DNA of 64,000 nt from a virus: positions 1-64,000 of the IMG/VR virus record IMGVR_UViG_3300015263_000653. The stretch is one strand, 5' to 3'. Made by a program: the position numbers and the translations under genes. Positions 15,971-31,284 of this stretch are shown piece by piece (the first letter of the stretch is position 1; the number at the start of each line of letters is the position of its first letter). The notes beneath the pieces were generated by a model. It worked only from the letters and a program-made list of their open reading frames with translations. It had not been told where the DNA came from and did not search any database.

Positions 15971-16345
15971 ATGACCATGCGAAACCCCCGTGGCAAGACG
16001 TTGAACCGTGCAATGCGGGATGCGGAAGCGAACTTCCGCTATCTCCAGAAGTTGACGGTCAACACTTCGCCGACCCTGAATCGGCTCGGCTCTGTCGCCG
16101 TGGCAACCATCCCAAAGGCTCCGAAAGATGGCTCGAACAAGCTGACTCTCAGCGTTCGTGGCATCGCCGAAGAGTCCGCCCGGATCGCCAAGGTGCTCAA
16201 AAACGGTGTCACCGCCGACCAGATTGCCGCTGGTGCGACCGTTCCCGTCAAGTTCAGCCGCATCGACGTGATGGTGACGTTCAAGATCGACGCCGCCGCC
16301 GTCAATGCCGCTCAGGAACGTGTCAAGCGTCGGATCGCTGCCTGA
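15971..16345 (+). CDS. hypothetical basic protein (array cassette)
   Basis: GAGGAG SD; ends RRIAA. Confidence 0.85.
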   Translation: MTMRNPRGKTLNRAMRDAEANFRYLQKLTVNTSPTLNRLGSVAVATIPKAPKDGSNKLTLSVRGIAEESARIAKVLKNGVTADQIAAGATVPVKFSRIDVMVTFKIDAAAVNAAQERVKRRIAA

Positions 16346-16463
16346 GTGACACCCGCTTGGGAAGCGTGAGGCAAACGCCGCCCTGCCTCACGCTTCCCAA
16401 CTCTTTCATCTAACACCCGCTTGGGAAGCGTACAACACACAACACCTTTTACTGGAGATCGCA

Positions 16464-17069
16464 ATGATGACCACGACCATGACCCCAAAGGATGCTTGGC
16501 TGTACGCTGCAAGCTGGGGATCGCTGATCCGAAGCGGAGACCCCGGCGCATGTATGTACGGATTCAATGAGTCCTGCCGCCCTCAGTCTGAGGAACACCG
16601 GCAAGCGGTTCTCGAATACGTCAAGGGTTGCCGTGCCGCTGTGGAAGCAAGCCCGGAAGACTACGATGATGATGAACTGGAAAAGATGGATGCGTTCGTC
16701 GAATTCATCACCAATCGGGGCATCACCGGTCAAGAGCGTGAACCATTCATCATCGAAATCAGCCTTTGCGGCTCGGTGAGCGTTTGCAAGATGGATGGCA
16801 GTGAGATCGACGGCGATTTGCTCAACGATCTGGCCGACTGCAATGCCAGCGGAGATTGCGAACCCGCTTGTCGATACGTTCTCGACCAGTACAAGCCCGA
16901 ATTTCGCATCGTTCGCAAGGTCGGTGACAAGTATGAAAACGTGATCGCCTCGGCAAAGGAAAAGAAAGCCGTCTGCAAAACGATCTATTTCGACTCCGAA
17001 ACCGACTTCGACGATGAGGACAACTGCAACGTCTACCTGATGTGGGAAGCCGCTCACGACGAAGAGTAA
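16464..17069 (+). CDS. hypothetical protein (array cassette)
   Basis: leader + SD; stop in repeat. Confidence 0.85.
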   Translation: MMTTTMTPKDAWLYAASWGSLIRSGDPGACMYGFNESCRPQSEEHRQAVLEYVKGCRAAVEASPEDYDDDELEKMDAFVEFITNRGITGQEREPFIIEISLCGSVSVCKMDGSEIDGDLLNDLADCNASGDCEPACRYVLDQYKPEFRIVRKVGDKYENVIASAKEKKAVCKTIYFDSETDFDDEDNCNVYLMWEAAHDEE

Positions 17070-17234
17070 CACCCGCTTGGACACCATCTGAGAAACATGC
17101 AATACCTCGAAGGCTCCGAATGGAAAGGAGGTGGCCCATGAAGTTCTGAACCCCGATCTGAATTGAACATGAGGTACGCCGGGGGAGGCAACTCCCCCGG
17201 CTACGCCTAACACCCGCTTGAAGGAAAACAACAC

Positions 17235-17426
17235 ATGAACCCATCGACTCACAACGGATTCATTCTGGCCTATTCCGGCCCCGTGTTTCCGGCATCAACC
17301 GCCAACCAAATCACCTACGATTGCTTTTGCTTCATGGGCGGATTGGCGAACGGACGATTGCAAAAGATCGAAAAACGAAACGGCAGCCACGTTTACCACA
17401 CCTACCATCGGTGCGACACTGCCTAA
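17235..17426 (+). CDS. hypothetical protein (array cassette)
   Basis: flanked by identical 25-bp junctions. Confidence 0.75.
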   Translation: MNPSTHNGFILAYSGPVFPASTANQITYDCFCFMGGLANGRLQKIEKRNGSHVYHTYHRCDTA

Positions 17427-17448
17427 CACCCGCTTGAAGGAAAACGAC

Positions 17449-17685
17449 ATGATTCGTGACAGATTGAAACGAAAACACCTTGCGGATCGCAAACCGTTGC
17501 ATGAAATGCACGCTGGCCCCGGCTGGCTGTGGGATCGCAACGAAGTGGGAGAGGCACGCAAACGGGTCGCTGCAAAGCACTATATCCGTCGCCACTCAAC
17601 CATGAATGTGATCGACGTGAGAGACCTGCCCACGCCGGTATTGGTTGTGATCGCAAAATCTGTCAAACAACTGACTGGCCGCTAA
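17449..17685 (+). CDS. hypothetical protein (array cassette)
   Basis: AAGGA SD; stop in repeat. Confidence 0.75.
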   Translation: MIRDRLKRKHLADRKPLHEMHAGPGWLWDRNEVGEARKRVAAKHYIRRHSTMNVIDVRDLPTPVLVVIAKSVKQLTGR

Positions 17686-17731
17686 CACCCGCTTGTTCGT
17701 CGTCAACACAACCCTTTCACTGGAGAACACT

Positions 17732-18091
17732 ATGCAACACCGCATCATCGAAGGCGACGAAAACAAGGTCGGCAAGCTGGTTATCACCATCGACGCCGAT
17801 GAACAAGCCGAACTGAGAGAGTTGATCGAACCGCTTGTCTGTAACTCCGAATTGCAGTGGATCAACCCGGAAGATACCGGCGACCTCACCGACGCCCCCA
17901 TGCTGGGCATCCTCGGCGAAGAGTCCACCGAAAACACCGGCCCCTTCGGGGCAATCCAGTGCGGTTTCTGGGATGGCAAACCCCGCTTTCAACCGATTCT
18001 CAACCGCTGGGCATTCATGGAATCGGCCCTGCGAAGCCCCCTCGAAGACCTGCTCGAAAAGGGCGAAGTGGTTTTCGTGGATCGCAACTAA
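17732..18091 (+). CDS. hypothetical protein (array cassette)
   Basis: leader + SD; stop in repeat. Confidence 0.85.
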   Translation: MQHRIIEGDENKVGKLVITIDADEQAELRELIEPLVCNSELQWINPEDTGDLTDAPMLGILGEESTENTGPFGAIQCGFWDGKPRFQPILNRWAFMESALRSPLEDLLEKGEVVFVDRN

Positions 18092-18136
18092 CACCCGCTT
18101 GGCAAGAGTCAACACAACCCAACCAATGGAGAACCA

Positions 18137-18565
18137 ATGATTCGATTCTTCGGAACTGAGACGTGTTTGCCTCGCTGGCGTGAGATCGTGATTGAACTCA
18201 CCGGCAAGCCTTGCACCGAAATCATTCCAGCACCGGCCCGCTCCAATGTCAGCTTTCAATTCGATGCCGACATTGACAACGCTGATCGGGAAACCCTGAT
18301 GGTCCCTTGGCGTCAAGAGACCGGTATCCCCGGCGTAACCGATGCTCAAAGCCGTCCCCTGCTGTGGAACTGCTGTGTCGCTTACGAAGAACACCCGCTT
18401 GGAGTGAAGACAATGGAAAAGCCCCTCAGTGCGATGGAAGAGTGGATGGTCAAATCCAATCTGCAAACGATTGCCGATGGAAGAGACGCCGCCGATCTGG
18501 TCGCTGAATTGCGCCACAATGGCTACCTGAGAGTCGCCGCCGCTGTCGAAGCCCGTTCCAAGTAA
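18137..18565 (+). CDS. hypothetical protein with an internal repeat copy (possible internal start ~18413)
   Basis: EHPLG encoded by the repeat at 18389. Confidence 0.75.
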   Translation: MIRFFGTETCLPRWREIVIELTGKPCTEIIPAPARSNVSFQFDADIDNADRETLMVPWRQETGIPGVTDAQSRPLLWNCCVAYEEHPLGVKTMEKPLSAMEEWMVKSNLQTIADGRDAADLVAELRHNGYLRVAAAVEARSK

Positions 18566-18612
18566 CACCCGCTTGGATCATGTAACAACACAACACCTAA
18601 CTGGAGATCGCT

Positions 18613-18978
18613 ATGAGAACTCGACCTGCACTCGACTCGGATCGTCAAGCCGAAGCCTTTGCACATGAAAGCCCCCGGCTGGCAATCTGTGAAGGAAATC
18701 TGAGGAACGGCAACCTCAACCGCCCGCCGCAAGTGTTCCTCGAAATCGACGGGGAAGACATCCAAATCTGTGACACCGTTCTGAATATCGCCATCCGGCG
18801 ACCACACGACGGTCGGTATGCCCGTGTCAACCTCGTGCTGTCAGCGTCCCACGACGGCAATAAGGTCCGGGCTATCCTCCAATGCGTGGGAACGACGAAA
18901 GAGTTTCGCAAGGAACAACAGGCGCATTTCGTCTGGAACTATGACGATGAGCGGCAATCCTACGAACCCGCCGTCTAA
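18613..18978 (+). CDS. hypothetical protein (array cassette)
   Basis: leader + SD; stop in repeat. Confidence 0.85.
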   Translation: MRTRPALDSDRQAEAFAHESPRLAICEGNLRNGNLNRPPQVFLEIDGEDIQICDTVLNIAIRRPHDGRYARVNLVLSASHDGNKVRAILQCVGTTKEFRKEQQAHFVWNYDDERQSYEPAV

Positions 18979-18990
18979 CACCCGCTTGAA

Positions 18991-19085
18991 CAACGTCAGC
19001 AGTCATCCGAAAATGACACCTAACCAAAGGCCGTAAAACTTTGCCGGGGCCGGGCTGGACAGTAGGCTCTGAACTGCTGATGTTT
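18991..19085 (+). other. non-coding structured cassette
   Basis: AACGTCAGCAGT…ACTGCTGATGTT closing stem between repeats 18976 and 19092. Confidence 0.55.
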
Positions 19086-19113
19086 TTCACTCAACACCCG
19101 CTTGGAGAGAGAC

Positions 19114-19419
19114 ATGACAAACAAACGCTATCACGGTCGCTGCGAAATCAAGCCGAAAACCAGAGGCAATGGAAACGAAGCCGACTTCCGGTTGCGAGAT
19201 TATCTCTCACCGGGCGGACGATACCCCTACGCCGATCTGGCTGGAGACTTGGAAGCCGCCCTCGCCGATGGTTTCACCGTCTATCTGTTCTCGGTCCCCG
19301 GCTTTATGATGCTCGCCGGGCATCCCTCGGAACCGGGCTGTGAAGACCTCGAACCGTGGCACGTCACCGACGCCGGGGATGAATACCACAAAACCGCCGC
19401 TGAGGCACTCCGGGTCTAA
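19114..19419 (+). CDS. hypothetical protein (array cassette)
   Basis: SD; stop in repeat. Confidence 0.8.
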   Translation: MTNKRYHGRCEIKPKTRGNGNEADFRLRDYLSPGGRYPYADLAGDLEAALADGFTVYLFSVPGFMMLAGHPSEPGCEDLEPWHVTDAGDEYHKTAAEALRV

Positions 19420-19471
19420 CACCCGCTTGAACCCTGTCACAACACAACACCTTTCACTGGAGATCGAAAAC

Positions 19472-19798
19472 ATGCGAACGACCGAAACCGTCACCATCAA
19501 GGCCACTCCCGAAGCTGTCAAGCTGGCTCGCACCGCTTTGCAGATTCAAGACGCCTGCAACCCCCTCGCCGTCGCCAACCAACTTGAAGTGACACAACGG
19601 CACTTCCGGGATGGGACAAGTCAGGGACAGAAGTACGGCGGAAGCGATATGGGCCTCCAAAACCCTGTCAGCATCGCCATCCTCAACAAGCTCAATGACC
19701 TCGCCGGTCTCGAACAATCCCGCACCGATTGTTTCGACGCCTGCCAGAAACTCGCCGAAGGCGACGACGCCGACTGGGAAATCAACTTCCTCAACTAA
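19472..19798 (+). CDS. hypothetical protein (array cassette)
   Basis: leader + SD; stop in repeat. Confidence 0.85.
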   Translation: MRTTETVTIKATPEAVKLARTALQIQDACNPLAVANQLEVTQRHFRDGTSQGQKYGGSDMGLQNPVSIAILNKLNDLAGLEQSRTDCFDACQKLAEGDDADWEINFLN

Positions 19799-19869
19799 CA
19801 CCCGCTTGGATGATGCCGGGGAGAACAACCTCCCCGGCACTCAATCCAAAATTTGTACTGGGAGAAACC

Positions 19870-20388
19870 ATGCCTCACAAACTCACCATCCGAAAGATGC
19901 GACCAACCGCCGAACAAGTTGCCATTGTCAGGCAATTCGCATCCGCCGAATCACGACCCGATTCCGCCGAATATGAACGGTTTCAACGGCAAATGAACAA
20001 GGTCAATCCACCCAAAATGAAAGCGAAAGAGCGGAAAGCTATCCCCAACACCACGCAAGGATTCAACCCCGGCGACATCCGACTAACACCCGCTTTCAAC
20101 GCAACGGACCTGCCCAAAGGTTACGCCGTCACAAGCTGTTACGACTCTGGTGGAAACCATCAAGTCGAAGCCGCTGGTACTGCCCTGCTACGGTTCATCT
20201 GGAACGGATGGGCCGGAAGAGGCGCAGGACAAAAATGGGCAAACCAAGTGCTCGATGAGATCGAGCGTAACACCCGCTTGCAAGATACCGATTGGGACGA
20301 ATACGAACGACGTGTCACCGACCTCGAAAACCAAGGTCTCACCCGTTCTGACGCTCAAGGTGTCGTCGATCTGGAGATGCGTCATTGA
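19870..20388 (+). CDS. hypothetical protein spanning two internal repeat copies
   Basis: repeats at 20084 (LTPAF) and 20268 (NTRL) lie within the ORF. Confidence 0.7.
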   Translation: MPHKLTIRKMRPTAEQVAIVRQFASAESRPDSAEYERFQRQMNKVNPPKMKAKERKAIPNTTQGFNPGDIRLTPAFNATDLPKGYAVTSCYDSGGNHQVEAAGTALLRFIWNGWAGRGAGQKWANQVLDEIERNTRLQDTDWDEYERRVTDLENQGLTRSDAQGVVDLEMRH

Positions 20389-20572
20389 ACGAAGATATTG
20401 AACAACTCAAAGCCATCCACGAAAAACTCGCCGAAGTCGCCAAAACTCTCGGTTGTGAACTGGAATGGCACTTCCACGAACCATCACAAACCGTGTTTTT
20501 CGTCCCTAAGTTGCCAGCACCGTAACACCCGCTTGGGAACCATCACCACTCAACCCCCTTGGAGAACAAAAC

Positions 20573-20890
20573 ATGATCGTTCACAGCAAAAGTGATGTGT
20601 TCCTCGGCGCAATTGTCACCCTCAACACTGGCGACAAGGCCGAAGTCATTGACGATCACGAAAACCATGAAACCGTGATTGTCAACCTGAACAACGTCCC
20701 GACGCCGGTACTCGTGTCCGAAGCGTTCAACCCCGAAACCGATCCCCTGTGGATCGCCGAAATCAAGCCCGAAGATAACAAGCCGCAAGAGGATGAACCC
20801 CAGCCAACACCCGCTTGTGACCTGTTCGATGAAATCTTCGATGGAATCGACCCCGATACCTTCGATGGTGACATCCTCGACCTGATCTAA
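20573..20890 (+). CDS. hypothetical acidic protein (array cassette)
   Basis: SD; internal repeat at 20805; stop in repeat. Confidence 0.8.
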   Translation: MIVHSKSDVFLGAIVTLNTGDKAEVIDDHENHETVIVNLNNVPTPVLVSEAFNPETDPLWIAEIKPEDNKPQEDEPQPTPACDLFDEIFDGIDPDTFDGDILDLI

Positions 20891-20906
20891 CACCCGCTTG
20901 GAGAGC

Positions 20907-21218
20907 ATGATGACACAGCAACTCGAAATCGACCTCGTTCCCTATGACGTGGAACAACCTGACCCGAATACGATGGTCATGGTGAGCGAATACTACGCCG
21001 ATAAACTCCGCATCAAGTCTCGATTCACTGAGAAGTATGCCGGGTTCTATCACGGTGAGAACTTCGTCACCCTTGACATTGACAACGATGAAAATACGTT
21101 GACATTCACCTGCCGAAATGAACCAATGACGCTGGATATTGTCGCCGACTTTTTCGACCGGAATATCCATGCCATCGACGAAATCGGCTATGAGTGCCTT
21201 TACCCCGAACCAGTGTAA
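20907..21218 (+). CDS. hypothetical protein (array cassette)
   Basis: SD at the repeat end; stop in repeat. Confidence 0.8.
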   Translation: MMTQQLEIDLVPYDVEQPDPNTMVMVSEYYADKLRIKSRFTEKYAGFYHGENFVTLDIDNDENTLTFTCRNEPMTLDIVADFFDRNIHAIDEIGYECLYPEPV

Positions 21219-21321
21219 CACCCGCTTGAAGTGTGTAACAACCTTCAATCGTCGGTGAGAGAGAAACCCTCTCTCACCGACAATCCCCGAACTCTTTCAA
21301 CAATCAAGATCGGAGCAAACA

Positions 21322-21576
21322 ATGTCAAAAGCCGCTGTCATGGAACAATTCGCAAAGCGTATGGGAATCAGCGTTCACCAAGCCCGACGCCTGCAAACCC
21401 TTGTCAACAAGGCCGCTGATGCTCAAGTGGAAGAACATAACACCGGAACCGATTCCGCTGCCGCTTGCAAGGCCGTCGATGAGTACGCCCTGAAACTCAA
21501 TCTGGGAGTGGACTGGCGACCCGGTATCTACCCCCTGTTCATCAACGGAAGCAACCGGGAAAACGTCCCCGACTAA
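21322..21576 (+). CDS. hypothetical protein (array cassette)
   Basis: SD; stop in repeat. Confidence 0.85.
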   Translation: MSKAAVMEQFAKRMGISVHQARRLQTLVNKAADAQVEEHNTGTDSAAACKAVDEYALKLNLGVDWRPGIYPLFINGSNRENVPD

Positions 21577-21626
21577 CACCCGCTTGGAACCTGTTACAAC
21601 ACACAACACAACCGGAGATCGAAACC

Positions 21627-21917
21627 ATGCTGCTACTCTTGACAGTGGACTGGGATACCGATGGGGAATCCCTCGACGATTGCGGACTCCCTAGCAAAGT
21701 CCTCGTTCCAGACTTCCCCGAATCCTGCCACTTGGGCGCAAACCTAATCAAGTTTGAGGCCGAAGAGGCTCTAGGGGATCATCTGTCCGATCAATTCGGT
21801 TTCTGTCACAACGGATGGAGCATCGAAGTCCTCAACGTCCAGAATCACACTGGATACGTCGCCGAAGTTGACAAGCGGATCGGCATTATGTTCTGCCCTG
21901 AGATCGAAGAGGTCTAA
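21627..21917 (+). CDS. hypothetical protein (array cassette)
   Basis: DWDTDGE…LP…LSDQFGFCHNG; flanked by identical 31-bp junctions. Confidence 0.85.
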   Translation: MLLLLTVDWDTDGESLDDCGLPSKVLVPDFPESCHLGANLIKFEAEEALGDHLSDQFGFCHNGWSIEVLNVQNHTGYVAEVDKRIGIMFCPEIEEV

Positions 21918-21966
21918 CACCCGCTTGGAACCTGTTACAACACAACACCTTCACCGGAGATCGACA

Positions 21967-22218
21967 ATGGCTCAAAAGCCGAACCACTTCTGTATGCAAT
22001 GCACTGACAAGACAAGCGGCAAGGTGGGAGATTTCGCCTACCATACGGATAACCCGTTCGTCGCCCTGTCACCCGTGTTCCCCGATTTCGTCCAGTTTCT
22101 CGACTGGCTGAAAGAAAACAACCTGAAATGCGGGCCGCTGGCATCGTTTGAACTACTCCCCATCGAACCGGAAATGCCGATGGACCGTGAGTTCGACGGG
22201 GCGGAATACTTCACCTAA
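21967..22218 (+). CDS. hypothetical protein (array cassette)
   Basis: leader + SD; stop in repeat. Confidence 0.8.
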   Translation: MAQKPNHFCMQCTDKTSGKVGDFAYHTDNPFVALSPVFPDFVQFLDWLKENNLKCGPLASFELLPIEPEMPMDREFDGAEYFT

Positions 22219-22268
22219 CACCCGCTTGGAACCCGTAACAACCCAACACAACTTTTGGAGTCAAACCA

Positions 22269-22541
22269 ATGTCCAGACACATCACCCCGGCAAAGGCCGA
22301 TCAATGGTCCGTCATTGCCAACAAGCTGAGACAAGCCAGCGAATTGCTGGGAGAATGTCACGTTCTGCTGGCCTGTGACCTCGGTATCACTGAGGGCAAG
22401 CCAATGGAAGCCGTTGTCAAGGCCGAAGATGCTGTCAGTGGTCTGGCCTATATGTTCACCCCGCAAAGTGAGTGGACCGGTGGCGACTCCAGCGACCCGA
22501 ACAACTTCAAGTTTCGACCCCCGCATATCGCCTCCAGCTAA
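22269..22541 (+). CDS. hypothetical protein (array cassette)
   Basis: leader + SD; stop in repeat. Confidence 0.8.
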   Translation: MSRHITPAKADQWSVIANKLRQASELLGECHVLLACDLGITEGKPMEAVVKAEDAVSGLAYMFTPQSEWTGGDSSDPNNFKFRPPHIASS

Positions 22542-22586
22542 CACCCGCTTGGAACGTGTAACAAACACAATCAATCGGAGAGCAAG

Positions 22587-23102
22587 ATGAAACACTTTAT
22601 CAATGATGAACAACGGGCAATCGCCTACGCCGCTTTCAAGGAATTGGAACGGATGCTCAAGGCCGATGGCGACATCAAGCCAGATTCAACCTATGACGTA
22701 TCTGGCTCGGAAATCACCATCACCATTCAACCCGGTGTCACCATCAACCGGGAAGCTGGCCTGAAAGGGGATGGCACGATTGAGAAACGGGCGCAACAGA
22801 ATCTCAACGGGTATTCCATACTCGCCGAACTGTATCGCATCGCTTCCACGTTCAATCAACACAAGCGGTTTGAGAGACTGTTAAAGCGTGTCGTCGGTCG
22901 TGCTGTCAGACGTGGCAACACTACGAAAGATGCCTTCGCAGCACTCTGCCCCCGTCGTGCTGAGGAACTGGAAAACTACATCGCTGAAATCGCTAATAGC
23001 CTGCCGAAGCGTACCGAACAAACGCCCCGCAGCGTTATCAGAGACAAAGCGAAACTCTTTCCAACCATCGTCATCAAGTCCAGAAAACGAAAGGCTGCCT
23101 AA
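22587..23102 (+). CDS. hypothetical basic protein (array cassette)
   Basis: SD; ends KRKAA. Confidence 0.85.
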   Translation: MKHFINDEQRAIAYAAFKELERMLKADGDIKPDSTYDVSGSEITITIQPGVTINREAGLKGDGTIEKRAQQNLNGYSILAELYRIASTFNQHKRFERLLKRVVGRAVRRGNTTKDAFAALCPRRAEELENYIAEIANSLPKRTEQTPRSVIRDKAKLFPTIVIKSRKRKAA

Positions 23103-23162
23103 CACCCGCTTGGGGAGTGTGAGGAAAACACTCCTCAAGTTATCAACCAGATCGGAGAAAAC

Positions 23163-23393
23163 ATGAAAGATCCACAATGGAACGCATTGGTATTGCGTCT
23201 CGCTAATAGTGGGACACAAGCCGAACGGGAAAAGTGGGCCGCAAAACAACCCCCGTTGTTGGCCTCTCTCGACCCCGCTGACGCTGAGGATGCCGATGCC
23301 GTCCCCGTGTCCTATCCCATTGACAACTATCGCCACAATCGCACTGGCAAACCCTCAATGGCGACTGGGAACAACCTCAAACCTGTCATTTAA
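23163..23393 (+). CDS. hypothetical protein (array cassette)
   Basis: SD; stop in repeat. Confidence 0.75.
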   Translation: MKDPQWNALVLRLANSGTQAEREKWAAKQPPLLASLDPADAEDADAVPVSYPIDNYRHNRTGKPSMATGNNLKPVI

Positions 23394-23678
23394 CACCCGC
23401 TTATGGTTCATCAGGGTAAAGCCAATCCTGACAACAGTGAGCAAGTGAGGCGCAGGGGGAACGTAGGGAAAATGGGATGTTTTGGCCTAGTCCCAGTCCT
23501 TTGTGGTGTCCCCGTGGCGTCGGAGCGGCTGGGGAGCGGTGTCCAGTACAATTTTTGGACTGGTCGCCGGGATGTTTAAGATAGTTTAAGAAGCTGGCCG
23601 ATACTTATGTTATCTTAAACAACGGTGCAACACCCGCTTGTAATCTGTAAGAACGAACCTTAACTGGAGGAAAGAGCA

Positions 23679-23879
23679 ATGGCTAAGCGTAGGCGAAAGC
23701 CTCAACCCGTAGTGATGCCGAAAGCCGAGTCAAATCGGTTTACGATCACCATTGATCCGTTGAAAGTGGCGATGGGCCATCAGCCACATATCACGGGGAC
23801 CGGCGTGCATGACAACCGCCCAAAGCGGAGGCGCACAAGGTCCGCCCAAACACTCGCTTGGAAAGGCGAGTGGAACTAA
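23679..23879 (+). CDS. small basic protein (array cassette)
   Basis: GGAGG SD; GTGVHDNRPKRRRTR motif; stop in repeat. Confidence 0.8.
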   Translation: MAKRRRKPQPVVMPKAESNRFTITIDPLKVAMGHQPHITGTGVHDNRPKRRRTRSAQTLAWKGEWN

Positions 23880-23964
23880 CACCCGCTTGTAACCTACTCA
23901 GTAACTCGAAGAGTTACTGAGTAGGAAACTGGGAACCAACAAACACCCGCTTGGAGAACGACGA

Positions 23965-24216
23965 ATGACACTGAAAGAGTTTCTGAAACTGGAACGAGAA
24001 CACCGGACGGCTGGCAAGTGGTGGATGGGAACCTATGACGTTATCAACGATCATGGTGTCACCGTCAAAGTCGCCATCAAGAGCTACGGCTTTTACAACC
24101 AGATTCTCCGTCTCAACGATGATCCGGTCAATTATTGCTCTGGACACACTTGCGAGAAAGTGGGACTGATGCAAAAGCACCTGACCGAGACCATCAACCG
24201 CATCACCGCCGCCTAA
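23965..24216 (+). CDS. hypothetical protein (array cassette)
   Basis: SD; ends RITAA. Confidence 0.85.
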   Translation: MTLKEFLKLEREHRTAGKWWMGTYDVINDHGVTVKVAIKSYGFYNQILRLNDDPVNYCSGHTCEKVGLMQKHLTETINRITAA

Positions 24217-24326
24217 CACCCGCTTGTCAACCATCTGAGTAACTCTTCGAGTTACTCAGATGGGAAGCGGGACTGAGAGAACACCCGCTTGGAAGTCAAC
24301 ACAACACAACTTTTGGAGACAAGCCA

Positions 24327-24689
24327 ATGCCGCTGACACTGAAAGAGCGATTGTCAATGCTTTACACCAAAGGCTATCGCTTCTGCATCCAGTTCGCTGA
24401 GACCAGCAACATCGAACCGCTGGCCGTCAAGACTCTCTCGGAGATTGGTCCGCTGATGCGGAACCACTACGCCAATGAGAAGAACTGGCGAGGCTGGGAG
24501 TTCGATGCCGATGGAGTCGAAGTCCCGAAGAACACCCGCTGGAAGAAACATGGGACAGCCGGTGGACACGTCATCTGGACCGATGGCGAAGTTTACCAAG
24601 CCACAACCGGACCAGTGCCGGGGGATGGCGACGGTGGCTATCCCGTACTGGAATCCCTGCTCAACCTCAAGGGATTGAAACTCGACTGA
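24327..24689 (+). CDS. hypothetical protein with an internal repeat-like copy
   Basis: leader + SD; NTRW at 24531. Confidence 0.8.
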   Translation: MPLTLKERLSMLYTKGYRFCIQFAETSNIEPLAVKTLSEIGPLMRNHYANEKNWRGWEFDADGVEVPKNTRWKKHGTAGGHVIWTDGEVYQATTGPVPGDGDGGYPVLESLLNLKGLKLD

Positions 24690-24768
24690 CACCCGCTTGG
24701 ACACCACCTGAGTAACTCAGAGAGTTACTCAGGTGGGCAATCCACCTAACACCCACTTGGAGAGAACA

Positions 24769-25035
24769 ATGAGTCAACGGCGACAAGTGCGGCTCGAATG
24801 TCGCACAGTTGTTCTGGATGAGCATACGCTGGGCGTGGCCTATCCGAACGGACTACAGATTTTGCGTGCGTCGATCCTGCGTGGTTCGCCGCATCCGGGG
24901 ATGGGCCTGATCGCTTTCGATCCTCTGCTTAACACCCGCTGGAGAAGTGCAACAGAACAAGACTTCAACGAGTTCGGAGTCATGTTCAATGCGGATTACC
25001 TGACGCCGACCGAAGTGCCGACGTTTCTCAACTGA
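24769..25035 (+). CDS. hypothetical protein with an internal repeat-like copy
   Basis: SD; NTRW at 24931. Confidence 0.8.
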   Translation: MSQRRQVRLECRTVVLDEHTLGVAYPNGLQILRASILRGSPHPGMGLIAFDPLLNTRWRSATEQDFNEFGVMFNADYLTPTEVPTFLN

Positions 25036-25082
25036 CACCCGCTTGGAGAGACGGATTTCAGATTGTCCGCCATGTTCACCGG

Positions 25083-25343
25083 ATGTGGTTTGAAGTGATT
25101 GATCCTCACGGCTGCGAAGCGGTTGTGGTGAAGCAAAACGATCACGCTTACCACTGGTTCGATAAGAAGCACCGTGCCACTGCCAGCAACAGCAGTGCGG
25201 CTCGGTGTCACTTGGGCGGGCTGGGAGACGCCATCGGTACGGATGGGGAAATGTGGGGTTACAAAAACCTCGTGAAGAACGCCCCGGAAGAACTGTCCCG
25301 CAACTACGAAGGACTGTACGTCGCAATTCAGCAGGTGATGTAA
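25083..25343 (+). CDS. hypothetical protein (array cassette)
   Basis: stop in repeat; start uncertain. Confidence 0.65.
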   Translation: MWFEVIDPHGCEAVVVKQNDHAYHWFDKKHRATASNSSAARCHLGGLGDAIGTDGEMWGYKNLVKNAPEELSRNYEGLYVAIQQVM

Positions 25344-25394
25344 CACCCGCTTGGAAAGCGTAACAACCCAACACAACTTTTGGAGTGCTGAACC

Positions 25395-25658
25395 GTGGAG
25401 AATCTTCAAGACTACAACGGACACCCGCTTGCAGTGGGTGACACGATCCAAAGCATCGAGAATGGTTGGCGTGGTGTCATCCAAGCCATCGGCGAAGACG
25501 AAGGCCGAAACACCATGCTGGAATGTCTCGGTGTCAACTTCTGGGATGGATCGCTGGACGAAGACGACCGGCAATGGTACTCGGCCTATGACGTGGTTTT
25601 CCAGCCCCGTCAGGAGCACCAGCCCGGCGACCCGATCAACGCCATCAACATGATGTAA
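25395..25658 (+). CDS. hypothetical protein (array cassette)
   Basis: leader + SD, GTG start; stop in repeat. Confidence 0.8.
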   Translation: MENLQDYNGHPLAVGDTIQSIENGWRGVIQAIGEDEGRNTMLECLGVNFWDGSLDEDDRQWYSAYDVVFQPRQEHQPGDPINAINMM

Positions 25659-25667
25659 CACCCGCTT

Positions 25668-25748
25668 GGGGCAGTGTGAGAAGTGAGTCCTGTGTCCGAA
25701 AGGGCAACGTAACTGCGAATTAACGCACGCCGTTCTCACACTGCCCCT
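25668..25748 (+). other. non-coding hairpin cassette
   Basis: GGGGCAGTGTGAGAA…TTCTCACACTGCCCC 15-bp stem, then TTTT and the next repeat. Confidence 0.75.
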
Positions 25749-25881
25749 TTTTAACACCCGCTTGTGGTGTATGAGGGAAAGGCAAAAGGCACTCTGAGAA
25801 CCCTACGGGGGGAATGAGAGAATCCCACGCCAGAGCCGTTGTGTCTGGGACACAGCCCCTCTAACACCCACTTGGAGGACA

Positions 25882-26040
25882 ATGATGGAAGACGGGACAA
25901 GAGTGTATGTGCCAAGCGTTGGCAAGAGCGGAACGATGAAGTTCTCAGTGCCCGGCAATGGCACGTTCCGCTGGTATATCGTCGAGTTCGACGACGGCAC
26001 TGAGGATCGTTTTGTCCTTGAGGATTTGCAGCGGGAGTAA
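25882..26040 (+). CDS. small hypothetical protein (52 aa, below the ORF-track cutoff)
   Basis: GGAGG SD; MMEDGTRVYVPSVG…DLQRE; stop in repeat. Confidence 0.75.
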   Translation: MMEDGTRVYVPSVGKSGTMKFSVPGNGTFRWYIVEFDDGTEDRFVLEDLQRE

Positions 26041-26088
26041 CACCCGCTTGAGTCCTGTACAACACACAACACCTTTTGGAGATCGCTG

Positions 26089-26403
26089 ATGTTGACAGAC
26101 GAACAAAAGAAAGAGCGTCGGTTTCTCAGTCACAACATTGAACTGGGACAACGGGGCCGCAAGCGGATGCCGTTCAGCGAAGTCTGTATGCACATGCGGA
26201 TCGCTGGCAAGTACATGGATTTCGAGTTGCTCAACAAGGAGTATCCCGGAGTCCAGTTGTACGAAGACGGTCGCCCGTTCTCTGGCTCGATCACGACCGG
26301 CGAAGCTGGCATCTTCCATGACTCGGAGCGGGGATATTACTACTACCCCCACGAGTACAACGCCGAGAACATGGACGACGCCGCCGACAACCCGCCCAGT
26401 TGA
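26089..26403 (+). CDS. hypothetical protein (array cassette)
   Basis: leader + SD; stop in repeat. Confidence 0.85.
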   Translation: MLTDEQKKERRFLSHNIELGQRGRKRMPFSEVCMHMRIAGKYMDFELLNKEYPGVQLYEDGRPFSGSITTGEAGIFHDSERGYYYYPHEYNAENMDDAADNPPS

Positions 26404-26482
26404 CACCCGCTTGAACCTCACCTCAGTAACTCAAAGAGTTACTGAGGTGGACAACCCCGAACCCATTTGGAGGAACACCCAC

Positions 26483-26686
26483 TTGAAAGACAGAACAACC
26501 CTTGGCCTGATGGCAGCACTGCTGAGCATGGGCGGCATCATCCCGATGCCATCGTCGGAACCTCGTCGCCGTGTGTATCGGTCGCCAGAGGAACGGCGAG
26601 ACCTGAACGCCGTCAAGGCGGAAAAGAAGCGAAAGCGGAAGATTTCGCAGAAGTCCCGCAAGGCCAATCGACGCAAGGCGGCATAA
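26483..26686 (+). CDS. small basic protein with hydrophobic N-terminus
   Basis: GGAGG SD, then a TTG start supplied by the repeat variant; ends RRKAA. Confidence 0.65.
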   Translation: MKDRTTLGLMAALLSMGGIIPMPSSEPRRRVYRSPEERRDLNAVKAEKKRKRKISQKSRKANRRKAA

Positions 26687-26736
26687 CACCCGCTTGAACA
26701 ACGTACAACACACAACACTTTCTGAGGAGATCGCTG

Positions 26737-27129
26737 ATGAGTTTCAAGTTTCGCCACGTTACCGTCAAGCTCGGCAACATGCGGAAAGAGGCCGAGTTCG
26801 TGGTCTGTCCGGTGAGCAATACCGCTCCCCATGAGATCACGATTCAGAGTGACAAGCGGATTGCCCGTGTCAATCTGGAGACGAAAAAGGTCATCGTGAG
26901 CGATGGCAAGGGCGGGCATCCGGGCTTCCACAAGCTGCAAGCGTTCTGTGGAGCGAAGGAATACGACGCCCCGCAAGACCTGCTCGACCAGTTGTCCGCA
27001 CTGGAAGAGGATCACGGCCCGATGGAGTCTGGCCCGGTGGTTGTCATGGATGAGAACGGCCCGGCCCCCAGCGTCCACGCTCGGCGTGAGACTGTCCCCA
27101 GCGGCCCGGTTTCCATCTTCGACCTGTAA
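26737..27129 (+). CDS. hypothetical protein (array cassette)
   Basis: leader + SD; stop in repeat. Confidence 0.85.
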   Translation: MSFKFRHVTVKLGNMRKEAEFVVCPVSNTAPHEITIQSDKRIARVNLETKKVIVSDGKGGHPGFHKLQAFCGAKEYDAPQDLLDQLSALEEDHGPMESGPVVVMDENGPAPSVHARRETVPSGPVSIFDL

Positions 27130-27197
27130 CACCCGCTTGGAGACTGTGAGACAGGAGTGGCCTGTCTCACAGTCAATCCAACTTTTGGAGTGGACCA

Positions 27198-27521
27198 ATG
27201 GCGAAAGACAAGCCAAAGATTGAGATCAAGTATGCTGACCGTGTTGTCGGCAGCTACACCCTGTACCGCTCAATGCCAAAGGGCGCACGAGTCACCCAAT
27301 GGGGAACATTCTTCCCCGGTCAAGGCGAGGATGGTTATGGTCGCAAGATCACAACCGACATCATCTTGATTTTCAATGGCGAGAGCAAGCGGAAATACCG
27401 GGTCTATGCGACCTGCTTTTCCAACTGTGCAAGCCACTGGATCACCTATCAGGGGCAGACGTTGCACCTTGGCACTCACTTTCAGGATGAGATCAAGCCG
27501 GAAAGTGAGATCCCGAAGTAA
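27198..27521 (+). CDS. hypothetical protein (array cassette)
   Basis: SD; GYGRKITT…RVYATCFSN motif; stop in repeat. Confidence 0.85.
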   Translation: MAKDKPKIEIKYADRVVGSYTLYRSMPKGARVTQWGTFFPGQGEDGYGRKITTDIILIFNGESKRKYRVYATCFSNCASHWITYQGQTLHLGTHFQDEIKPESEIPK

Positions 27522-27573
27522 CACCCGCTTGGAAGGTGTCAGCAATGGGGCTGACACCTTTCTGGAGAACACA

Positions 27574-27906
27574 ATGCACCAACTCGTTATCGCCCATCAC
27601 CCGCAGGACGTTGACCCTTCCGCCCCGATGGCGGACTCGCCGTTCTGGGCGTGGCTGGAAGAACACCCGCTTTCAGTCTGTCACGTTGCACTGCTCAAGT
27701 ATCTCGGAGCGGAGAATTATCCACGAGAGATGCGGCGTGGAATGCTCAACGAAACTGAGCACATGTGCTACAAGCACATCCATGCTCACTTTTGGTGGAC
27801 TCGGTTGCGGCAGCCGAAACCGGTGGTTGAGAAGACCCCGGAGCCGATCACGCCCCCGGAGTTGATTTCAGTCATCAGCTTCGATGGCATCAAGCGGCTG
27901 GTCTGA
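27574..27906 (+). CDS. hypothetical protein (array cassette)
   Basis: SD; stop in repeat. Confidence 0.8.
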   Translation: MHQLVIAHHPQDVDPSAPMADSPFWAWLEEHPLSVCHVALLKYLGAENYPREMRRGMLNETEHMCYKHIHAHFWWTRLRQPKPVVEKTPEPITPPELISVISFDGIKRLV

Positions 27907-27957
27907 CACCCGCTTGGAGAGTGTACAACACACAACACACTTTTGGAGATCGCCATC

Positions 27958-28290
27958 ATGGCACGTTGCGAAGACTTCCCCTGCTGTGGGCATGAACCCG
28001 GATGCTGCCCGGACTACGATGAGTCGGGCCGTCAGTTGAACATGGTTTGCGTCTGTGGGGCAAAGCTGCCCATCGACAGCCGCTACTCGATCTGTGCGAG
28101 TTGTATGCGAGACCCGGACGACCCCGATTTCGACCGGGATTTCGATGACGACTTCGAGGATGACGAAGAGGATTTCGACGAAGAGGACGACTACGAGCGT
28201 CGTCAGGACGAGATTCTGGAGCGTCAGGAACTCGAAGACTTCGAGCAGGCCGACGAATACTTCGGTGGCTACGGCGGGGAGGACTGGTAG
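27958..28290 (+). CDS. Cys-rich N-terminal, highly acidic protein
   Basis: CEDFPCCGH…CC…C.C…C..C followed by a D/E tract. Confidence 0.8.
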   Translation: MARCEDFPCCGHEPGCCPDYDESGRQLNMVCVCGAKLPIDSRYSICASCMRDPDDPDFDRDFDDDFEDDEEDFDEEDDYERRQDEILERQELEDFEQADEYFGGYGGEDW

Positions 28291-28495
28291 GACACCCGCT
28301 TGGAATACACTGGGGGAGACCGGGTAAAACGCCTCGGTCCCCAACTATCAAACCTAAAGCGACCCGACAGGCCGCACCCGGTTCTCCCCCTTTGATTTAC
28401 CTTTTTCGTCACTGGGCGACGGCGAATGTCCAGAACACAACGCCAGTAACACCCGCTTGGACAGCGGTAACACAACACAACTTTTGGAGTCAGCC

Positions 28496-28675
28496 ATGAC
28501 ACCGGCTCAACGTCAGCAGCGGCAAAACATTCGCAATGCGTATCTTGTGGCATCCATCGAAGAGATGGAAGCTGGCAAGGCTCAACAGAACGATTTCGGC
28601 AAGAGCGTCCTGCAAGAGATGATCGACGAGTGCAAACAGCACGGCGTTGACAACTATGGGAAGACTCCCCTCTAA
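28496..28675 (+). CDS. hypothetical protein (array cassette)
   Basis: leader + SD; stop in repeat. Confidence 0.8.
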   Translation: MTPAQRQQRQNIRNAYLVASIEEMEAGKAQQNDFGKSVLQEMIDECKQHGVDNYGKTPL

Positions 28676-28724
28676 CACCCGCTTGGGGAGTGTACAACAC
28701 ACAACACCTTTTTCGGAGATCGTG

Positions 28725-29228
28725 ATGAAAACCGTCACACGTCAAAGCCAGTGGGGGACTGGCAACATGGTTGTCGAGATCAGCGATGGTGGGATTGACT
28801 ACTGCAACCCCGATGCACTGTCCGCAAAGTATCGGGGCGAGTTCGAGGAATTTGCCGATCCTCGTGAGGCAGTGGAAACCGCTATCACCATCGCTCAACA
28901 GTGGCAGGCGGATGCTCCCGATAAGACCATCCTGATTGACCACGGTGGCACCGGTGGAATGACCATGCCATTCGATGGGATGGAACTGGGAGAGGAAACC
29001 TACACCGCTCTGAGGGAGTGGGCAAACAGCCAGTATGAGGAACTGGAGAAATGTTGCCGCTGTGGCGACATCCTCGGCAAAGAGCGATGGACACACCCGG
29101 AACTCTGCGAAGAGGAAAAGTTCTGCTCTGAGAACTGCTGTGACAACGCCTACTGGGACATGATGAAAGAACTCGAAGAGGAGGAGGAGGAGGAGGACGA
29201 GGATGAAGAAGTAGAGGACGACGAGTAA
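28725..29228 (+). CDS. hypothetical protein with zinc-finger-like C..C…FCSENC and acidic tail
   Basis: leader + SD; stop in repeat. Confidence 0.85.
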   Translation: MKTVTRQSQWGTGNMVVEISDGGIDYCNPDALSAKYRGEFEEFADPREAVETAITIAQQWQADAPDKTILIDHGGTGGMTMPFDGMELGEETYTALREWANSQYEELEKCCRCGDILGKERWTHPELCEEEKFCSENCCDNAYWDMMKELEEEEEEEDEDEEVEDDE

Positions 29229-29296
29229 CACCCGCTTGGAAGGTGTCAGGCAGGAGAATGGGCCTGCCTGACACTTTTCACAACTCGGAGAACACC

Positions 29297-29503
29297 ATGC
29301 CAAAGGCGCAATCGCAGTACAAGCCTATCGGCCAGTATCGGTTTCCCGCAATGGGCGGGCCGACTGTGACCTATGGGCAGAAACCCTACTACGGCAGGCG
29401 GATGCAGTATTTGCCAGCCGTGAGAACGACAATGCTTCAAGTCCAAGTGATGGTTCTCGGCTCGTTGATGTGGATCAACGTGAGGCCCGAGGATCTGAAG
29501 TAA
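29297..29503 (+). CDS. hypothetical protein (array cassette)
   Basis: SD; stop in repeat. Confidence 0.75.
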   Translation: MPKAQSQYKPIGQYRFPAMGGPTVTYGQKPYYGRRMQYLPAVRTTMLQVQVMVLGSLMWINVRPEDLK

Positions 29504-29553
29504 CACCCGCTTGGGTGATGTAACATCAGCAACCCCCGTAAGGGAGAAGAACA

Positions 29554-29703
29554 GTGCATTTCGACAAACGCAAGGCCAAACGTGCCGACAAACGACGCCG
29601 AGACAAGGAGATCGAGCGTTGCAAGAGGGAGCACGGGAATCGGGGTGAAAAGAACACTCGGAAGCGTCCCCGATTCGACGAGTTTGACAGGGAAGCGGCG
29701 TAA
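29554..29703 (+). CDS. small basic peptide (49 aa, below the ORF-track cutoff)
   Basis: GGGAG SD, GTG start, MHFDKRKAKR…DREAA; stop in repeat. Confidence 0.65.
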   Translation: MHFDKRKAKRADKRRRDKEIERCKREHGNRGEKNTRKRPRFDEFDREAA

Positions 29704-29752
29704 CACCCGCTTGGGGACTGTCAATCAACAATCCAACTTTTGGAATGAAGCC

Positions 29753-29938
29753 ATGAAGGTCGCCACGCATCGTTACCCCCGGACTGCTCAGGAGTCTCGG
29801 GAAGTCATCACCGACGTTGATTTCAGCGTCAAGGCCCGCAAGCGGAAGTTGCCCAACTGCTGGGACGACAAGCCACGGGGAGACCACGATCACCGCTCGT
29901 GGAAGCGTCATCGCCGCAACCAGTGGAAGGCAGCCTAA
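29753..29938 (+). CDS. small basic protein
   Basis: RYPRT…LPNCWDD…RSWKRHRRNQWK; ends WKAA. Confidence 0.8.
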   Translation: MKVATHRYPRTAQESREVITDVDFSVKARKRKLPNCWDDKPRGDHDHRSWKRHRRNQWKAA

Positions 29939-29988
29939 CACCCGCTTGTAGGCTGTACAACACACAACACCTTTTCAGGAGTCGAGCG

Positions 29989-30360
29989 ATGAACTTCGCC
30001 GTCAACACCAAAGACAGCATCTTGGCAACCTTGCGGGATGCGATTGATTTGCAGGATTACATGGTCAAGGCCGACCACATTCTGGATGCCCTGATGACGA
30101 CGGCAGGCGTCTGGACTGAGTGTGGCTATGCCTACAAGGCGACTGAGATCGCCAATATCATCGGCCAGCGGTTCACCGATGAGATCGGCAATTGCCATCA
30201 CCACAAGACCCACGCCAAGATCGACACCATGCGGATCAAGGCGTACACCGTCGCCCGGTTCTTCTGTGAACAGCAGTACGAGTATCGGGAAGCCCAGCAA
30301 GCGGAGATCGACGCCATGTTGGGCATCGAACACAAGACCGATATGGAGCTTGCGAGCTAA
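29989..30360 (+). CDS. hypothetical protein (array cassette)
   Basis: leader + SD; stop in repeat. Confidence 0.85.
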   Translation: MNFAVNTKDSILATLRDAIDLQDYMVKADHILDALMTTAGVWTECGYAYKATEIANIIGQRFTDEIGNCHHHKTHAKIDTMRIKAYTVARFFCEQQYEYREAQQAEIDAMLGIEHKTDMELAS

Positions 30361-30472
30361 CACCCGCTTGGAAGGTGTTGAGAGGGTGCTGTCTGGAGGC
30401 GACAGCCAAGTGTCACCCAGTCTCAGGTGAAACAGCCCGATCAACACCCGCTTGTAAAGTGTCACCGGTGGC

Positions 30473-30680
30473 AAGGACGACCGGGGAGAACACTGAGACA
30501 ACCGATTAGCCCACCGCTACCTACTGTCTTTACCGAAACTGCTGTGACAGCCGCCAGTCTGATGACGGGTTTACCGTACCTTGGCCGAGGCGTTGTCCAC
30601 TGGAAACGGCGACAGCAAAAGTAGGCAGAGTGGACGGTGTGCGAATCGAGTCTCAGTGAAGTATCCCCGGTCCTCTCCTT
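30473..30680 (+). ncRNA. rod-shaped structured ncRNA candidate (~210 nt, 6S-like size and shape)
   Basis: Nested pairs AAGGA/TCCTT, GACCGGGGA/TCCCCGGTC, CACTGAGAC/GTCTCAGTG, CGATT/AATCG, CACCG/CGGTG, CCTACT/AGTAGG, TGCTGT/ACAGCA, CCAGT/ACTGG; ends at the next repeat (30681). Confidence 0.65.
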
Positions 30681-30729
30681 CAACACCCGCTTGTACAACG
30701 TAACAACAACACCTTCTGAGGGCCACAAG

Positions 30730-30870
30730 ATGAATCAGCGTCGGATCTACCAACTCATGACGGAGTTGGGCAAGGAACTGGAGTCGTACAATCCGCCCGG
30801 CAATGTCAAGTTCAAGGCGGCAATCGCTGGCCTGCGAGCGGCCATCAAGAGTTTGCGAGTGTTCTTCTAA
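30730..30870 (+). CDS. small hypothetical protein
   Basis: leader + GAGG SD; stop in repeat. Confidence 0.7.
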   Translation: MNQRRIYQLMTELGKELESYNPPGNVKFKAAIAGLRAAIKSLRVFF

Positions 30871-30921
30871 CACCCGCTTGGACAACGTAACAACACAACC
30901 CACTTCTCAGGAGTTCACACG

Positions 30922-31155
30922 ATGAACCACAATCCCGGCGTCAACCGCATGAAGAACATCGCCCGCAATGGCTTCCTGTCCTCGCTGGTCGCCAAGGCCC
31001 ACGCCGGGCAGCGGCCCGACATCACCCTCAAGCCGAAGGGCGTCACCTGTGAGGAACTGGAGAAGTACCTCAAGGCCAACAACTGCGGCTGGACCAAGCA
31101 CGCTGGCGGACGGTATGTCATCGGCTCCCTGCGACCGGCCCGCAAGGCAGCGTAA
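30922..31155 (+). CDS. hypothetical protein (array cassette)
   Basis: leader + SD; ends ARKAA. Confidence 0.8.
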   Translation: MNHNPGVNRMKNIARNGFLSSLVAKAHAGQRPDITLKPKGVTCEELEKYLKANNCGWTKHAGGRYVIGSLRPARKAA

Positions 31156-31284
31156 CACCCGCTTGGAGAGTGTCAGCCAACAACCCCTCAGTTACTCTTT
31201 GAGTAACTGAGGGGGAGCGGCTGGCCGGGACCAACACCCGCTTGGACCGTGTTAAGACCACAACACCTTTTTGGAGATCGAGTC

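Follow-up and report, generated by a model that had tools for sequence, protein, structure and literature searches.

Mycobacteriophages of clusters A and K carry stoperators or start-associated sequences, asymmetric 13-bp sites that occur in many copies and in one orientation at gene boundaries, often at stop or start codons. Stoperators number ~20–35 per genome, are found genome-wide, and are bound by the phage repressor. Lambdoid phages have short conserved boundary, or linker, sequences that act as crossover points for mosaic exchange at gene boundaries; these are sporadic and weakly conserved. Judged by analogy, the closest known system to the one described here is the promoter-early stem-loops (PeSLs) of T4-type phages. 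PeSLs are repeated modules of a promoter and a stem-loop between orphan genes, and gains, losses, and replacements occur there (Arbiol et al. 2010, PMC2839356; Comeau et al. 2014, PMC4122927). An open reading frame (ORF) flanked by PeSLs in one phage can correspond to a single motif in a relative; the promoters match the sigma-70 consensus, and the modules share loose similarity over ~100 bp and number ~50 per genome (PMC2839356, PMC4122927). PeSL-type cassettes also have promoter and terminator activity, and neighboring motifs recombine to give mini-circles. Here, we investigated a 64,000-nucleotide stretch of viral DNA (IMG/VR record IMGVR_UViG_3300015263_000653, positions 1 to 64,000; hereafter the window) in which one short sequence, called the core, recurs at the boundaries of small orphan genes and separates them into an array of cassettes. 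The reading we favor, with a probability of about 60%, is that the core belongs to a compact expression signal, that cassettes are shuffled at the core, and that the promoter-leader module has recently been copied locally between junctions. Relative to this overall figure, we are less confident of the promoter claim and more confident that shuffling takes place at the core.

The core and its array

The window is the first 64 kb of one 89,856-bp virus contig (G000), for which CheckV estimates a completeness of ~18% and a full genome of about 500 kb. Allowing at most one mismatch, the core ACACCCGCTTG is present in 104 copies in the window, 89 of them exact. All 104 lie on the + strand between 743 and 32467, about one per 310 bp across 32 kb, and no copy within one mismatch was found outside 743–32467 in the whole 89.9-kb contig.

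743–32477, + strand: cassette array, ~75–100 compact cassettes separated by the 104 cores

The contig starts inside the array, which runs on past the contig start. Bases 64–90 kb of the contig code for a tape measure protein, baseplate wedge proteins, and other tail parts, and a minus-strand block at 33–64 kb codes for a virion protein, RNase H, ClpP, and several metabolic genes. Therefore, the source is a large tailed phage. The array is the early-type, hyperplastic arm of this phage, whose host phylum is Planctomycetota, since arrays of the same kind were found in Planctomycetota genomes (see below). Ten of the largest array proteins gave zero Pfam matches above the curated cut-off, and no Rfam family was matched within the window. 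INPHARED phages had no DNA match to window positions 16001–24000, and IMG/VR had no relative of the protein encoded at 22587–23102. A scan of IMG/VR with the single motif returned mostly chance matches. In the papers searched, the motif turned up only as an unrelated primer.

We count indices from the first A of the core, which is index 0. In the window, the core is written (T)(A/G)-ACACCCGCTTG and spans 11–13 nt. A stop codon (TAA or TGA) ends on index 0 in 60 of 73 called genes, an overlap that is explained by compaction, and the core lies at most 100 nt upstream of the start in 66 of the 73. Downstream of the core come about six weakly constrained bases and then a pyrimidine-purine step at index 16/17, usually within GT. 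In the window, index 16 is a pyrimidine at 79% of junctions, index 17 is a purine at 96%, and index 18 is mostly T. An A/C-rich, unstructured leader follows the step, then GGAGATCG with its GGAG ribosome-binding site, an ATG, and a small orphan gene. The distance from the core start to the ORF-opening ATG peaks at 43–54 nt. All 11 core positions have an information content of at least 1.65 bits over the 104 window junctions and at least 1.79 bits over 404 junctions from relatives.

Two minorities of junctions depart from this plan. At short junctions, the ATG lies 6–14 nt after the core and TTGGAG serves as the ribosome-binding site. At hairpin junctions, a hairpin starts 1–5 nt after the core, often with a second core next. 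One hairpin family has a conserved palindrome (CTGAGTAACTC, a 3–4-nt loop, and GAGTTACTCAG) 3' of the core, usually followed by a second core. It is found in the window at 23879–23935, 24216–24275, 24689–24745, 26403–26470, and 31155–31230, and in relatives in L048 near 6065, L076 near 2190, and L065 near 2289. Its stem is kept among distant relatives and its loop is variable; possible roles are those of operator, terminator, and processing site. Additionally, a near-palindrome, TCCAAAAWTTGTAC, replaces the usual leader directly 5' of the ribosome-binding site after G+C-rich hairpins at four junctions (4790–4815, 9160–9185, 13140–13165, and 19835–19860), and may be a second regulatory site.

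For both metagenomes and species genomes, we used a pair of cores 320–350 bp apart as the search key. This pattern retrieved 82 metagenome stretches, of which ~45 are true same-strand arrays from many projects, with a G+C content of 39–58%. The remaining matches, about half of the 82, were discarded as a 164-bp tandem repeat that appears to have no relation to the arrays and includes the 11-mer by coincidence; this repeat carries the 11-mer once per unit and lies on G+C-rich (61–68%) contigs including L037, L044, L056, L071, L074, and L104. The consensus of 404 non-redundant junctions from the relative arrays is (T/A)G-ACACCCGCTTG-W-NNNN-T-G-T-N-A, with a pyrimidine at index 16 in 87% and a purine at index 17 in 96%. 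Many window cassette proteins have homologs in the relative arrays at 31–66% identity. Between orthologous junctions, the variable part after the core and the leader differ, and the core is kept.

The species genomes with arrays are all Planctomycetota: Novipirellula rosea JCM 17759 (11 cores on a 496-kb contig), Roseiconus nitratireducens, and several metagenome-assembled genomes (MAGs), one of which carries its array within a 3.7-Mb contig. Of the five genomes searched, four have their cores in one cluster of 11–17 copies; the fifth (G006) has three cores only, on one small contig. Outside the arrays, four 6–10-Mb genomes contain the 11-mer no more often than a reversed-pattern control. The core is specific to mobile elements, and a Chi-like or other host-wide signal was rejected on this background level. 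In the chromosomal arrays, the core stands before genes for ArdC, a RuvB-like ATPase, a XerC/D-like recombinase, and other proteins, with a PrimPol-D5 primase-helicase upstream. Two integrated Pirellulales elements, G002:C6:99736-105878 (L144, in N. rosea JCM 17759) and G003:C11:3072148-3080132 (L146, L147), are syntenic and differ by extra cassettes. We also found cores at 3113–28332, near one end, of a 238,888-bp IMG/VR contig labelled viral (G001; L028, L115–L126). A related huge phage was rejected as its source, with only three weak protein matches to G000 (22–24% identity). Its array is of the ArdC/integrase type seen integrated in planctomycete chromosomes, and G001 may represent a mobile element of another kind or a piece of a host genome.

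What the core does is suggested by what it precedes and by what is kept. Because it is conserved in arrays of 39–58% G+C while the variable part and leader diverge, the core appears to be under direct selection. It is not a translation signal, because it flanks non-coding cassettes and a tRNA-Lys(UUU) cassette at L076 4155–4289 (oriented; core, 32 nt, tRNA, 7 nt, next core); a stop-restart signal was rejected on the same tRNA cassette. We consider a putative promoter most likely, given the near-invariant core amid diverging bases, the pyrimidine-purine step, the fixed distance to the ATG, and a block of more than 32 kb that has no other promoter. With transcription starting at index 17, the core would then most likely act as a single-element promoter covering about −17 to −7, and it would probably be read by a factor peculiar to these mobile elements instead of by the housekeeping sigma factor of the host. 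Of the features of a phage-specific single-element promoter (T7-type, or T4 late-type with a sigma-like reader), the conserved block and the pyrimidine-purine step are present here, and no matching polymerase or sigma gene was found in the 90-kb fragment; sigma-70-family genes lie in G001 (one inside the array) and near the L047 array.

We tried several known signals and rejected them. No −35/−10 match stands at a fixed distance from the core, as a host sigma-70 promoter would have, and sigma-70-like sites are depleted in the array (4 vs 8.5 ± 2.6 expected in 19.5 kb). For a sigma-54 promoter (GG and GC 10 bases apart, TGGCACG-N4-TTGC), TGACACCCGCTTGW is one base short and has neither the GG nor the GC. 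A sigma-54 activator adjoins the Novipirellula array; in the syntenic G003 element, a primase-helicase stands there instead, and the activator is not conserved. For an extracytoplasmic function (ECF)-type bipartite promoter, the spacing is ~2 nt too short, and conservation falls on what would have to be the spacer. Base pairing between the core and 16S rRNA amounts to only 7 bp and was dropped as an explanation. Finally, a leaderless start at index 17 was rejected, as there is no distinct ATG spike at that index.

Gain and loss of cassettes at the core

We compared the window with relatives. For the runs X4 and X1, the second of which is from the source sediment, the comparison used Logan contigs only, which break at repeats, and contig ends left loose at a junction were not taken as evidence of a different arrangement. 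In the X4 relative (another sediment sample, ~90% identity), a 552-bp contig is collinear with window positions 30253–30372, 30463–30650, and 30866–31061. It has one junction at each of two places where the window has two:

30360–30462, + strand: core-hairpin-core module with cores at 30360 and 30444, replaced by one junction in the X4 relative, where 12 letters stand for 30373–30462
30683–30896, + strand: junctions 30683 and 30870, alike in 7/8 variable bases and in the leader, flanking the 46-aa ORF 30730–30870; in the X4 relative, one junction replaces this cassette (30683–30870), and 31 other letters stand for 30651–30865

A second case involves arrays from other metagenomes. Genes 22269 and 22587 are adjacent, at the single junction 22541, in the window and in L063, and L053 has three extra core-bounded cassettes between their homologs. 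One of the three, a stand-alone cassette in L053, is the homolog of the second half (aa 93–142) of a window ORF in which two cassettes are fused:

18391–18401, + strand: core inside ORF 18137–18565, with GAA (18388–18390) in place of the usual TAA stop

In addition, the window ORF 19870–20388 reads through two cores (20086 and 20270), each in a different frame.

A clean gain or loss is seen between two close relatives, L105 and L086, which are 96–100% identical in blocks and three cassettes (887 bp) apart. The left flank of the single L105 junction is that of the first L086 core, and its right flank is that of the fourth. The crossover lies inside TTGACACCCGCTTGT. Identity is limited to a 15-nt stretch, which comprises the core plus three bases beside it, and in L086 the two variable parts bear no relation to each other. 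Furthermore, in alignments between contigs at 80–99.5% identity, 78 of 144 starts fall 1–10 nt before a core, and 60 of 128 ends fall 0–29 nt after a core start. This clustering is partly expected, because the core is common to every junction.

As far as sequence comparison reaches, these cases show whole cassettes gained or lost exactly at the core. The alignments likewise show homology between relatives to be cassette-wise, with the variable part and leader moving with the downstream gene. Recombination inside the core deletes, inserts, and reorders whole cassettes, because every cassette carries the same core.

These results bear on the original prediction, made from the window alone, which had read the genes of the array as individual cassettes inserted at the junctions and expected relatives to carry empty sites. 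The units between cores do behave as cassettes, with gains and losses at the core in X4, L053, and L105/L086. Empty-site alleles were found as well, in X4 for both 30683–30870 and 30360–30462, and in the window and L063 against the three cassettes of L053. Such alleles are equally expected from recombination between repeats.

Identity between neighboring junctions

Adjacent junctions can be alike well beyond the core. The repeated strings from which the prediction started are each present exactly twice, where it had placed them: a 25-mer at 17205 and 17421, a 31-mer at 21573 and 21914, a 19-mer at 16349 and 16413, and ACAACGTAACAACA at 30695 and 30882. Besides the two features given above, the window has the following:

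10851–11062, + strand: junctions 10851 (TGAAGTGT) and 11044 (TGAAGCGT), flanking a non-coding cassette of ~180 nt
14368–14717, + strand: junctions 14368 and 14699 (7/8), flanking ORF 14442–14699
16349–16431, + strand: core-hairpin-core module with the 19-nt repeat at 16349 and 16413; the variable part forms the stem base of the hairpin (16360–16397)
17205–17445, + strand: identical 25-mers at 17205 and 17421, flanking ORF 17235–17426 (63 aa); both junctions are of the short type, with the ATG 12–14 nt after the core
21573–21944, + strand: identical 31-mers at 21573 and 21914 (core, variable part, and leader start), flanking ORF 21627–21917 (96 aa)
22215–22563, + strand: junctions 22218 (GAACCCGT) and 22541 (GAACGTGT), flanking gene 22269–22541
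31445–31875, + strand: junctions 31445 and 31857, with GAAAGTGT and further bases in common

Adjacent junctions (lag 1) agree on average at 3.64 of the 8 nt that follow the core, compared with 3.15 for all pairs (z = 4.0); at lags 2, 3, and 5, the mean is at background. Adjacent pairs with at least 7/8 identical bases number 8 of 103 vs 1.6 expected (global permutation, p = 5e-5), four at 8/8 (0.2 expected) and four at 7/8 (1.3 expected). The excess of neighbor similarity over random junction pairs that the prediction relied on is therefore confirmed by this permutation run. When junctions were shuffled within blocks of 10, the expectation was 3.3 pairs and p was 0.003. The eight pairs are 10851/11044, 14368/14699, 16349/16413, 17210/17426, 21576/21917, 21917/22218, 30683/30870, and 31445/31857, and the neighbor signal rests on these ~8 of 103 neighbor pairs.

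We then considered how such pairs could arise. No paralogs were found among 77 array proteins, and the flanked gene pairs score no higher than shuffled sequences. Genes flanked in this way are not paralogous, and plain tandem gene duplication is therefore excluded. ORF 21627–21917, for example, is not paralogous to its neighbors and has a weak homolog in a different context in L042; the 31-mers that flank it extend in similarity to the ribosome-binding site when one indel is allowed. The junctions upstream of genes 22269 and 22587 agree at 6/8 variable bases in the window, whereas in L063 and L053 they show no such likeness. Since the adjacency of these genes is older than the split from L063 and the likeness is found in the window only, this argues for copying between neighbors rather than insertion.

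Under the favored reading, a second and weaker conserved block, the leader end with the ribosome-binding site, would allow exchanges that move an ORF alone. The same block would also allow unequal crossover, tandem duplication, or short-patch conversion to copy a promoter-leader module onto a neighbor. Recent local copying of this kind, not target-site duplication, would give the eight pairs with extended identity. A simple route could involve homologous exchange alone. If two variants that infect the same cell have different genes behind one and the same junction, one unequal crossover, joining the core after one gene to the core of that junction, would place both genes in tandem, each with the same module, and short-patch conversion between the core and the ribosome-binding-site block would have the same outcome. 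Tandem core-plus-hairpin modules in two relatives, at L047 1341–1521 (60-bp period, at least three copies) and L048 8652–8782 (oriented; 67-bp period, two copies, with a GT-dinucleotide run included), show that unequal exchange between neighboring cores takes place.

Several observations weigh against the favored reading. The 90-kb fragment yielded no RNA polymerase or sigma gene that could supply the reader of the core, with no match there to PF00940, PF00562, PF00623, or sigma domains. Genes that start 6–14 nt after the core, behind TTGGAG, need a transcript from upstream, yet the core is kept there. The first core of the core-hairpin-core modules has no gene to serve, and perfect hairpins start 1–5 nt after the core, upstream of the proposed start at index 17. 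These three features keep a role as an operator or as an RNA-processing site in play. Homology of 13–15 nt is short for general recombination, and a dedicated enzyme is possible. Lastly, the same neighbor test is only marginal in related arrays from other metagenomes (z = 1.6, p = 0.05).

The original prediction had explained the local identity by an insertion mechanism that duplicates its site, in the manner of CRISPR adaptation. It was right that such identity is unlike independently evolved promoters, and cassettes and empty sites exist; what did not hold is the duplication as a scar of insertion, being variable in length and mostly absent. Its more general form, in which a dedicated mechanism (a recombinase, copy-choice, or something adaptation-like) puts a cassette at a junction and duplicates the site, is in our view improbable. 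It would account for unique, unrelated genes flanked by identical 19–31-mers, for the empty-site allele of one flagged cassette (30683–30870), and for the XerC/D-like recombinase inside the array of related integrated elements. However, a fixed-length site does not agree with lengths of 18, 19, 25, 31, and up to ~58 nt in the window, sometimes reaching the ribosome-binding site, or with L046, where two adjacent cassettes are identical over exactly 52 nt, ending at the Shine-Dalgarno sequence, and unrelated beyond. Some 92% of neighbor pairs have no such identity, most gains and losses of cassettes do not show it, and the clean three-cassette difference between L105 and L086 has only the 15-nt core stretch in common. 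The core lacks symmetry and has none of the inverted arms that recombinase sites typically show. No tyrosine recombinase (PF00589) was found in the 329 kb of G000 and G001, both of them fragments, and no recombinase or adaptation-like machinery in the 90-kb fragment of G000, which is ~18% of its genome. An equally improbable variant makes the core the docking site of a cassette-capture system, by recombinase or polymerase copy-choice, that is common to Planctomycetota phages and integrative elements and recopies the core, variable part, and leader, so that neighbor identity would be its footprint. Were this so, genes would be captured much as in an integron, at a linear 13-nt site and with the expression signal built in.

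Three other readings concern what is being kept at the junctions. The core might be a stoperator-like binding site for a repressor or other regulator that silences or punctuates one long transcript, with shuffling and local copying unchanged. In favor of this, the core is an asymmetric 13-bp site that always points the same way relative to transcription and overlaps stop codons, and it is retained at short junctions and ahead of hairpins, places where a promoter would appear to have no purpose; in many relatives, its first bases, ACAC, form a weak inverted repeat with GTGT at index 15–18. We nevertheless regard an operator as unlikely, with sites numbering about one per gene over more than 32 kb that lack a sigma-70-type promoter to feed them, with a pyrimidine-purine step and a fixed distance to the ribosome-binding site that fit a start site, and with the core restricted to one gene block rather than spread genome-wide. 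Action in RNA, as a processing site at which a polycistronic transcript is cut into single-gene messages whose new 5' ends are protected by hairpins, would suit hairpins that start 1–5 nt after the core and include the variable part, cores that flank tRNA and non-coding cassettes, and short junctions that require transcripts from upstream. It seems to us quite unlikely: no candidate endoribonuclease turned up, the sequence around the core has no conserved RNA structure, nothing in the window matches Rfam, the perfect 15-bp palindromes resemble recent mutational products and not selected stems, and the missing upstream promoter would be left unexplained. The neighbor identity itself could reflect selection instead of common descent if the variable part set a promoter strength or timing that neighbors need alike. 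Relatives do have lineage-specific preferred variable parts, such as TAAGGTGT, and the window signal is partly regional, as the rise in expected pairs from 1.6 to 3.3 under the block shuffle indicates. But convergence would not give identity over 25–58 nt that includes the non-conserved leader, lags 2 and 3 are at background, and the data here already suggest that neighbor copies are mutual closest relatives across neutral leader positions; selection of this kind is highly improbable.

Outside the main subject, the contig has two further points of note. In gene 17732–18091, contigs of run X1 (depth 18) and X4 have 48 extra letters at 17825/17826, which is an in-frame length variant in the population. 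The block at 33000–64000 carries accessory genes of host-like appearance on the minus strand, including a Rieske ring-hydroxylating oxygenase (40333–41466), a glyoxalase (45866–46456), a rhomboid protein (46453–47055), a nucleotide-sugar epimerase (50768–51829), ClpP (56292–56903), a histidine phosphatase (56900–57616), and a CCA-adding-enzyme-like protein (62692–63999). An M14 carboxypeptidase (52979–54034) lies on the + strand within this otherwise minus-strand block.

Comparison with known systems

Like integrons, these elements have long one-directional arrays of small unrelated cassettes with a recurring site and a content that varies among relatives. Unlike the integron attC site, a 57–141-bp imperfect palindrome with R and L boxes, the core is an asymmetric 11–13-mer, and hairpins occur at a minority of junctions, with sequences unlike each other. 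No IntI was found, with PF00589 absent from the fragments G000 and G001, and the recombinase in the Novipirellula array is XerC/D-like, scoring 43.8 bits on TIGR02249, for which the integron-integrase cut-off is 265. Each cassette here also appears to carry its own expression signal. Stoperators differ in number and placement: the core is present in ~100 copies within one block. With lambdoid linkers, the core has in common that short conserved gene-boundary sequences act as crossover points, and differs in being one invariant motif at nearly every junction.

The likeness to PeSLs goes further. In both, a composite motif is repeated through a hyperplastic region, between the upstream stop codon and the ribosome-binding site or start of the next orphan gene, with stem-loops in variable positions. 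The breakpoints of gains, losses, and replacements likewise fall within the motif, as in X4, L053, L105/L086, and the alignment ends. However, the motif of these planctomycete phages is a near-invariant 11–13-mer that is not sigma-70-like, whereas PeSLs have sigma-70 −35/−10 promoters. There is about one core per 310 bp (104 in 32 kb), with the stop codon fused to the motif, and the core is common to phages and integrated elements of one phylum at 39–58% G+C.

If the favored reading is true, phages and integrated elements of Planctomycetota would use one short plug-in signal to express and shuffle small accessory genes, ~100 per phage arm, and this signal would be a common standard for a gene pool exchanged among otherwise unrelated mobile elements. 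Two cores 320–350 bp apart are a simple key for retrieving such arrays from metagenomes. Furthermore, N. rosea JCM 17759 is cultured and has an 11-core array, which makes the promoter and recombination claims bench-testable. The PeSL idea would then reach beyond T4-type coliphages, in an extreme and sequence-defined form, to a little-studied phylum.

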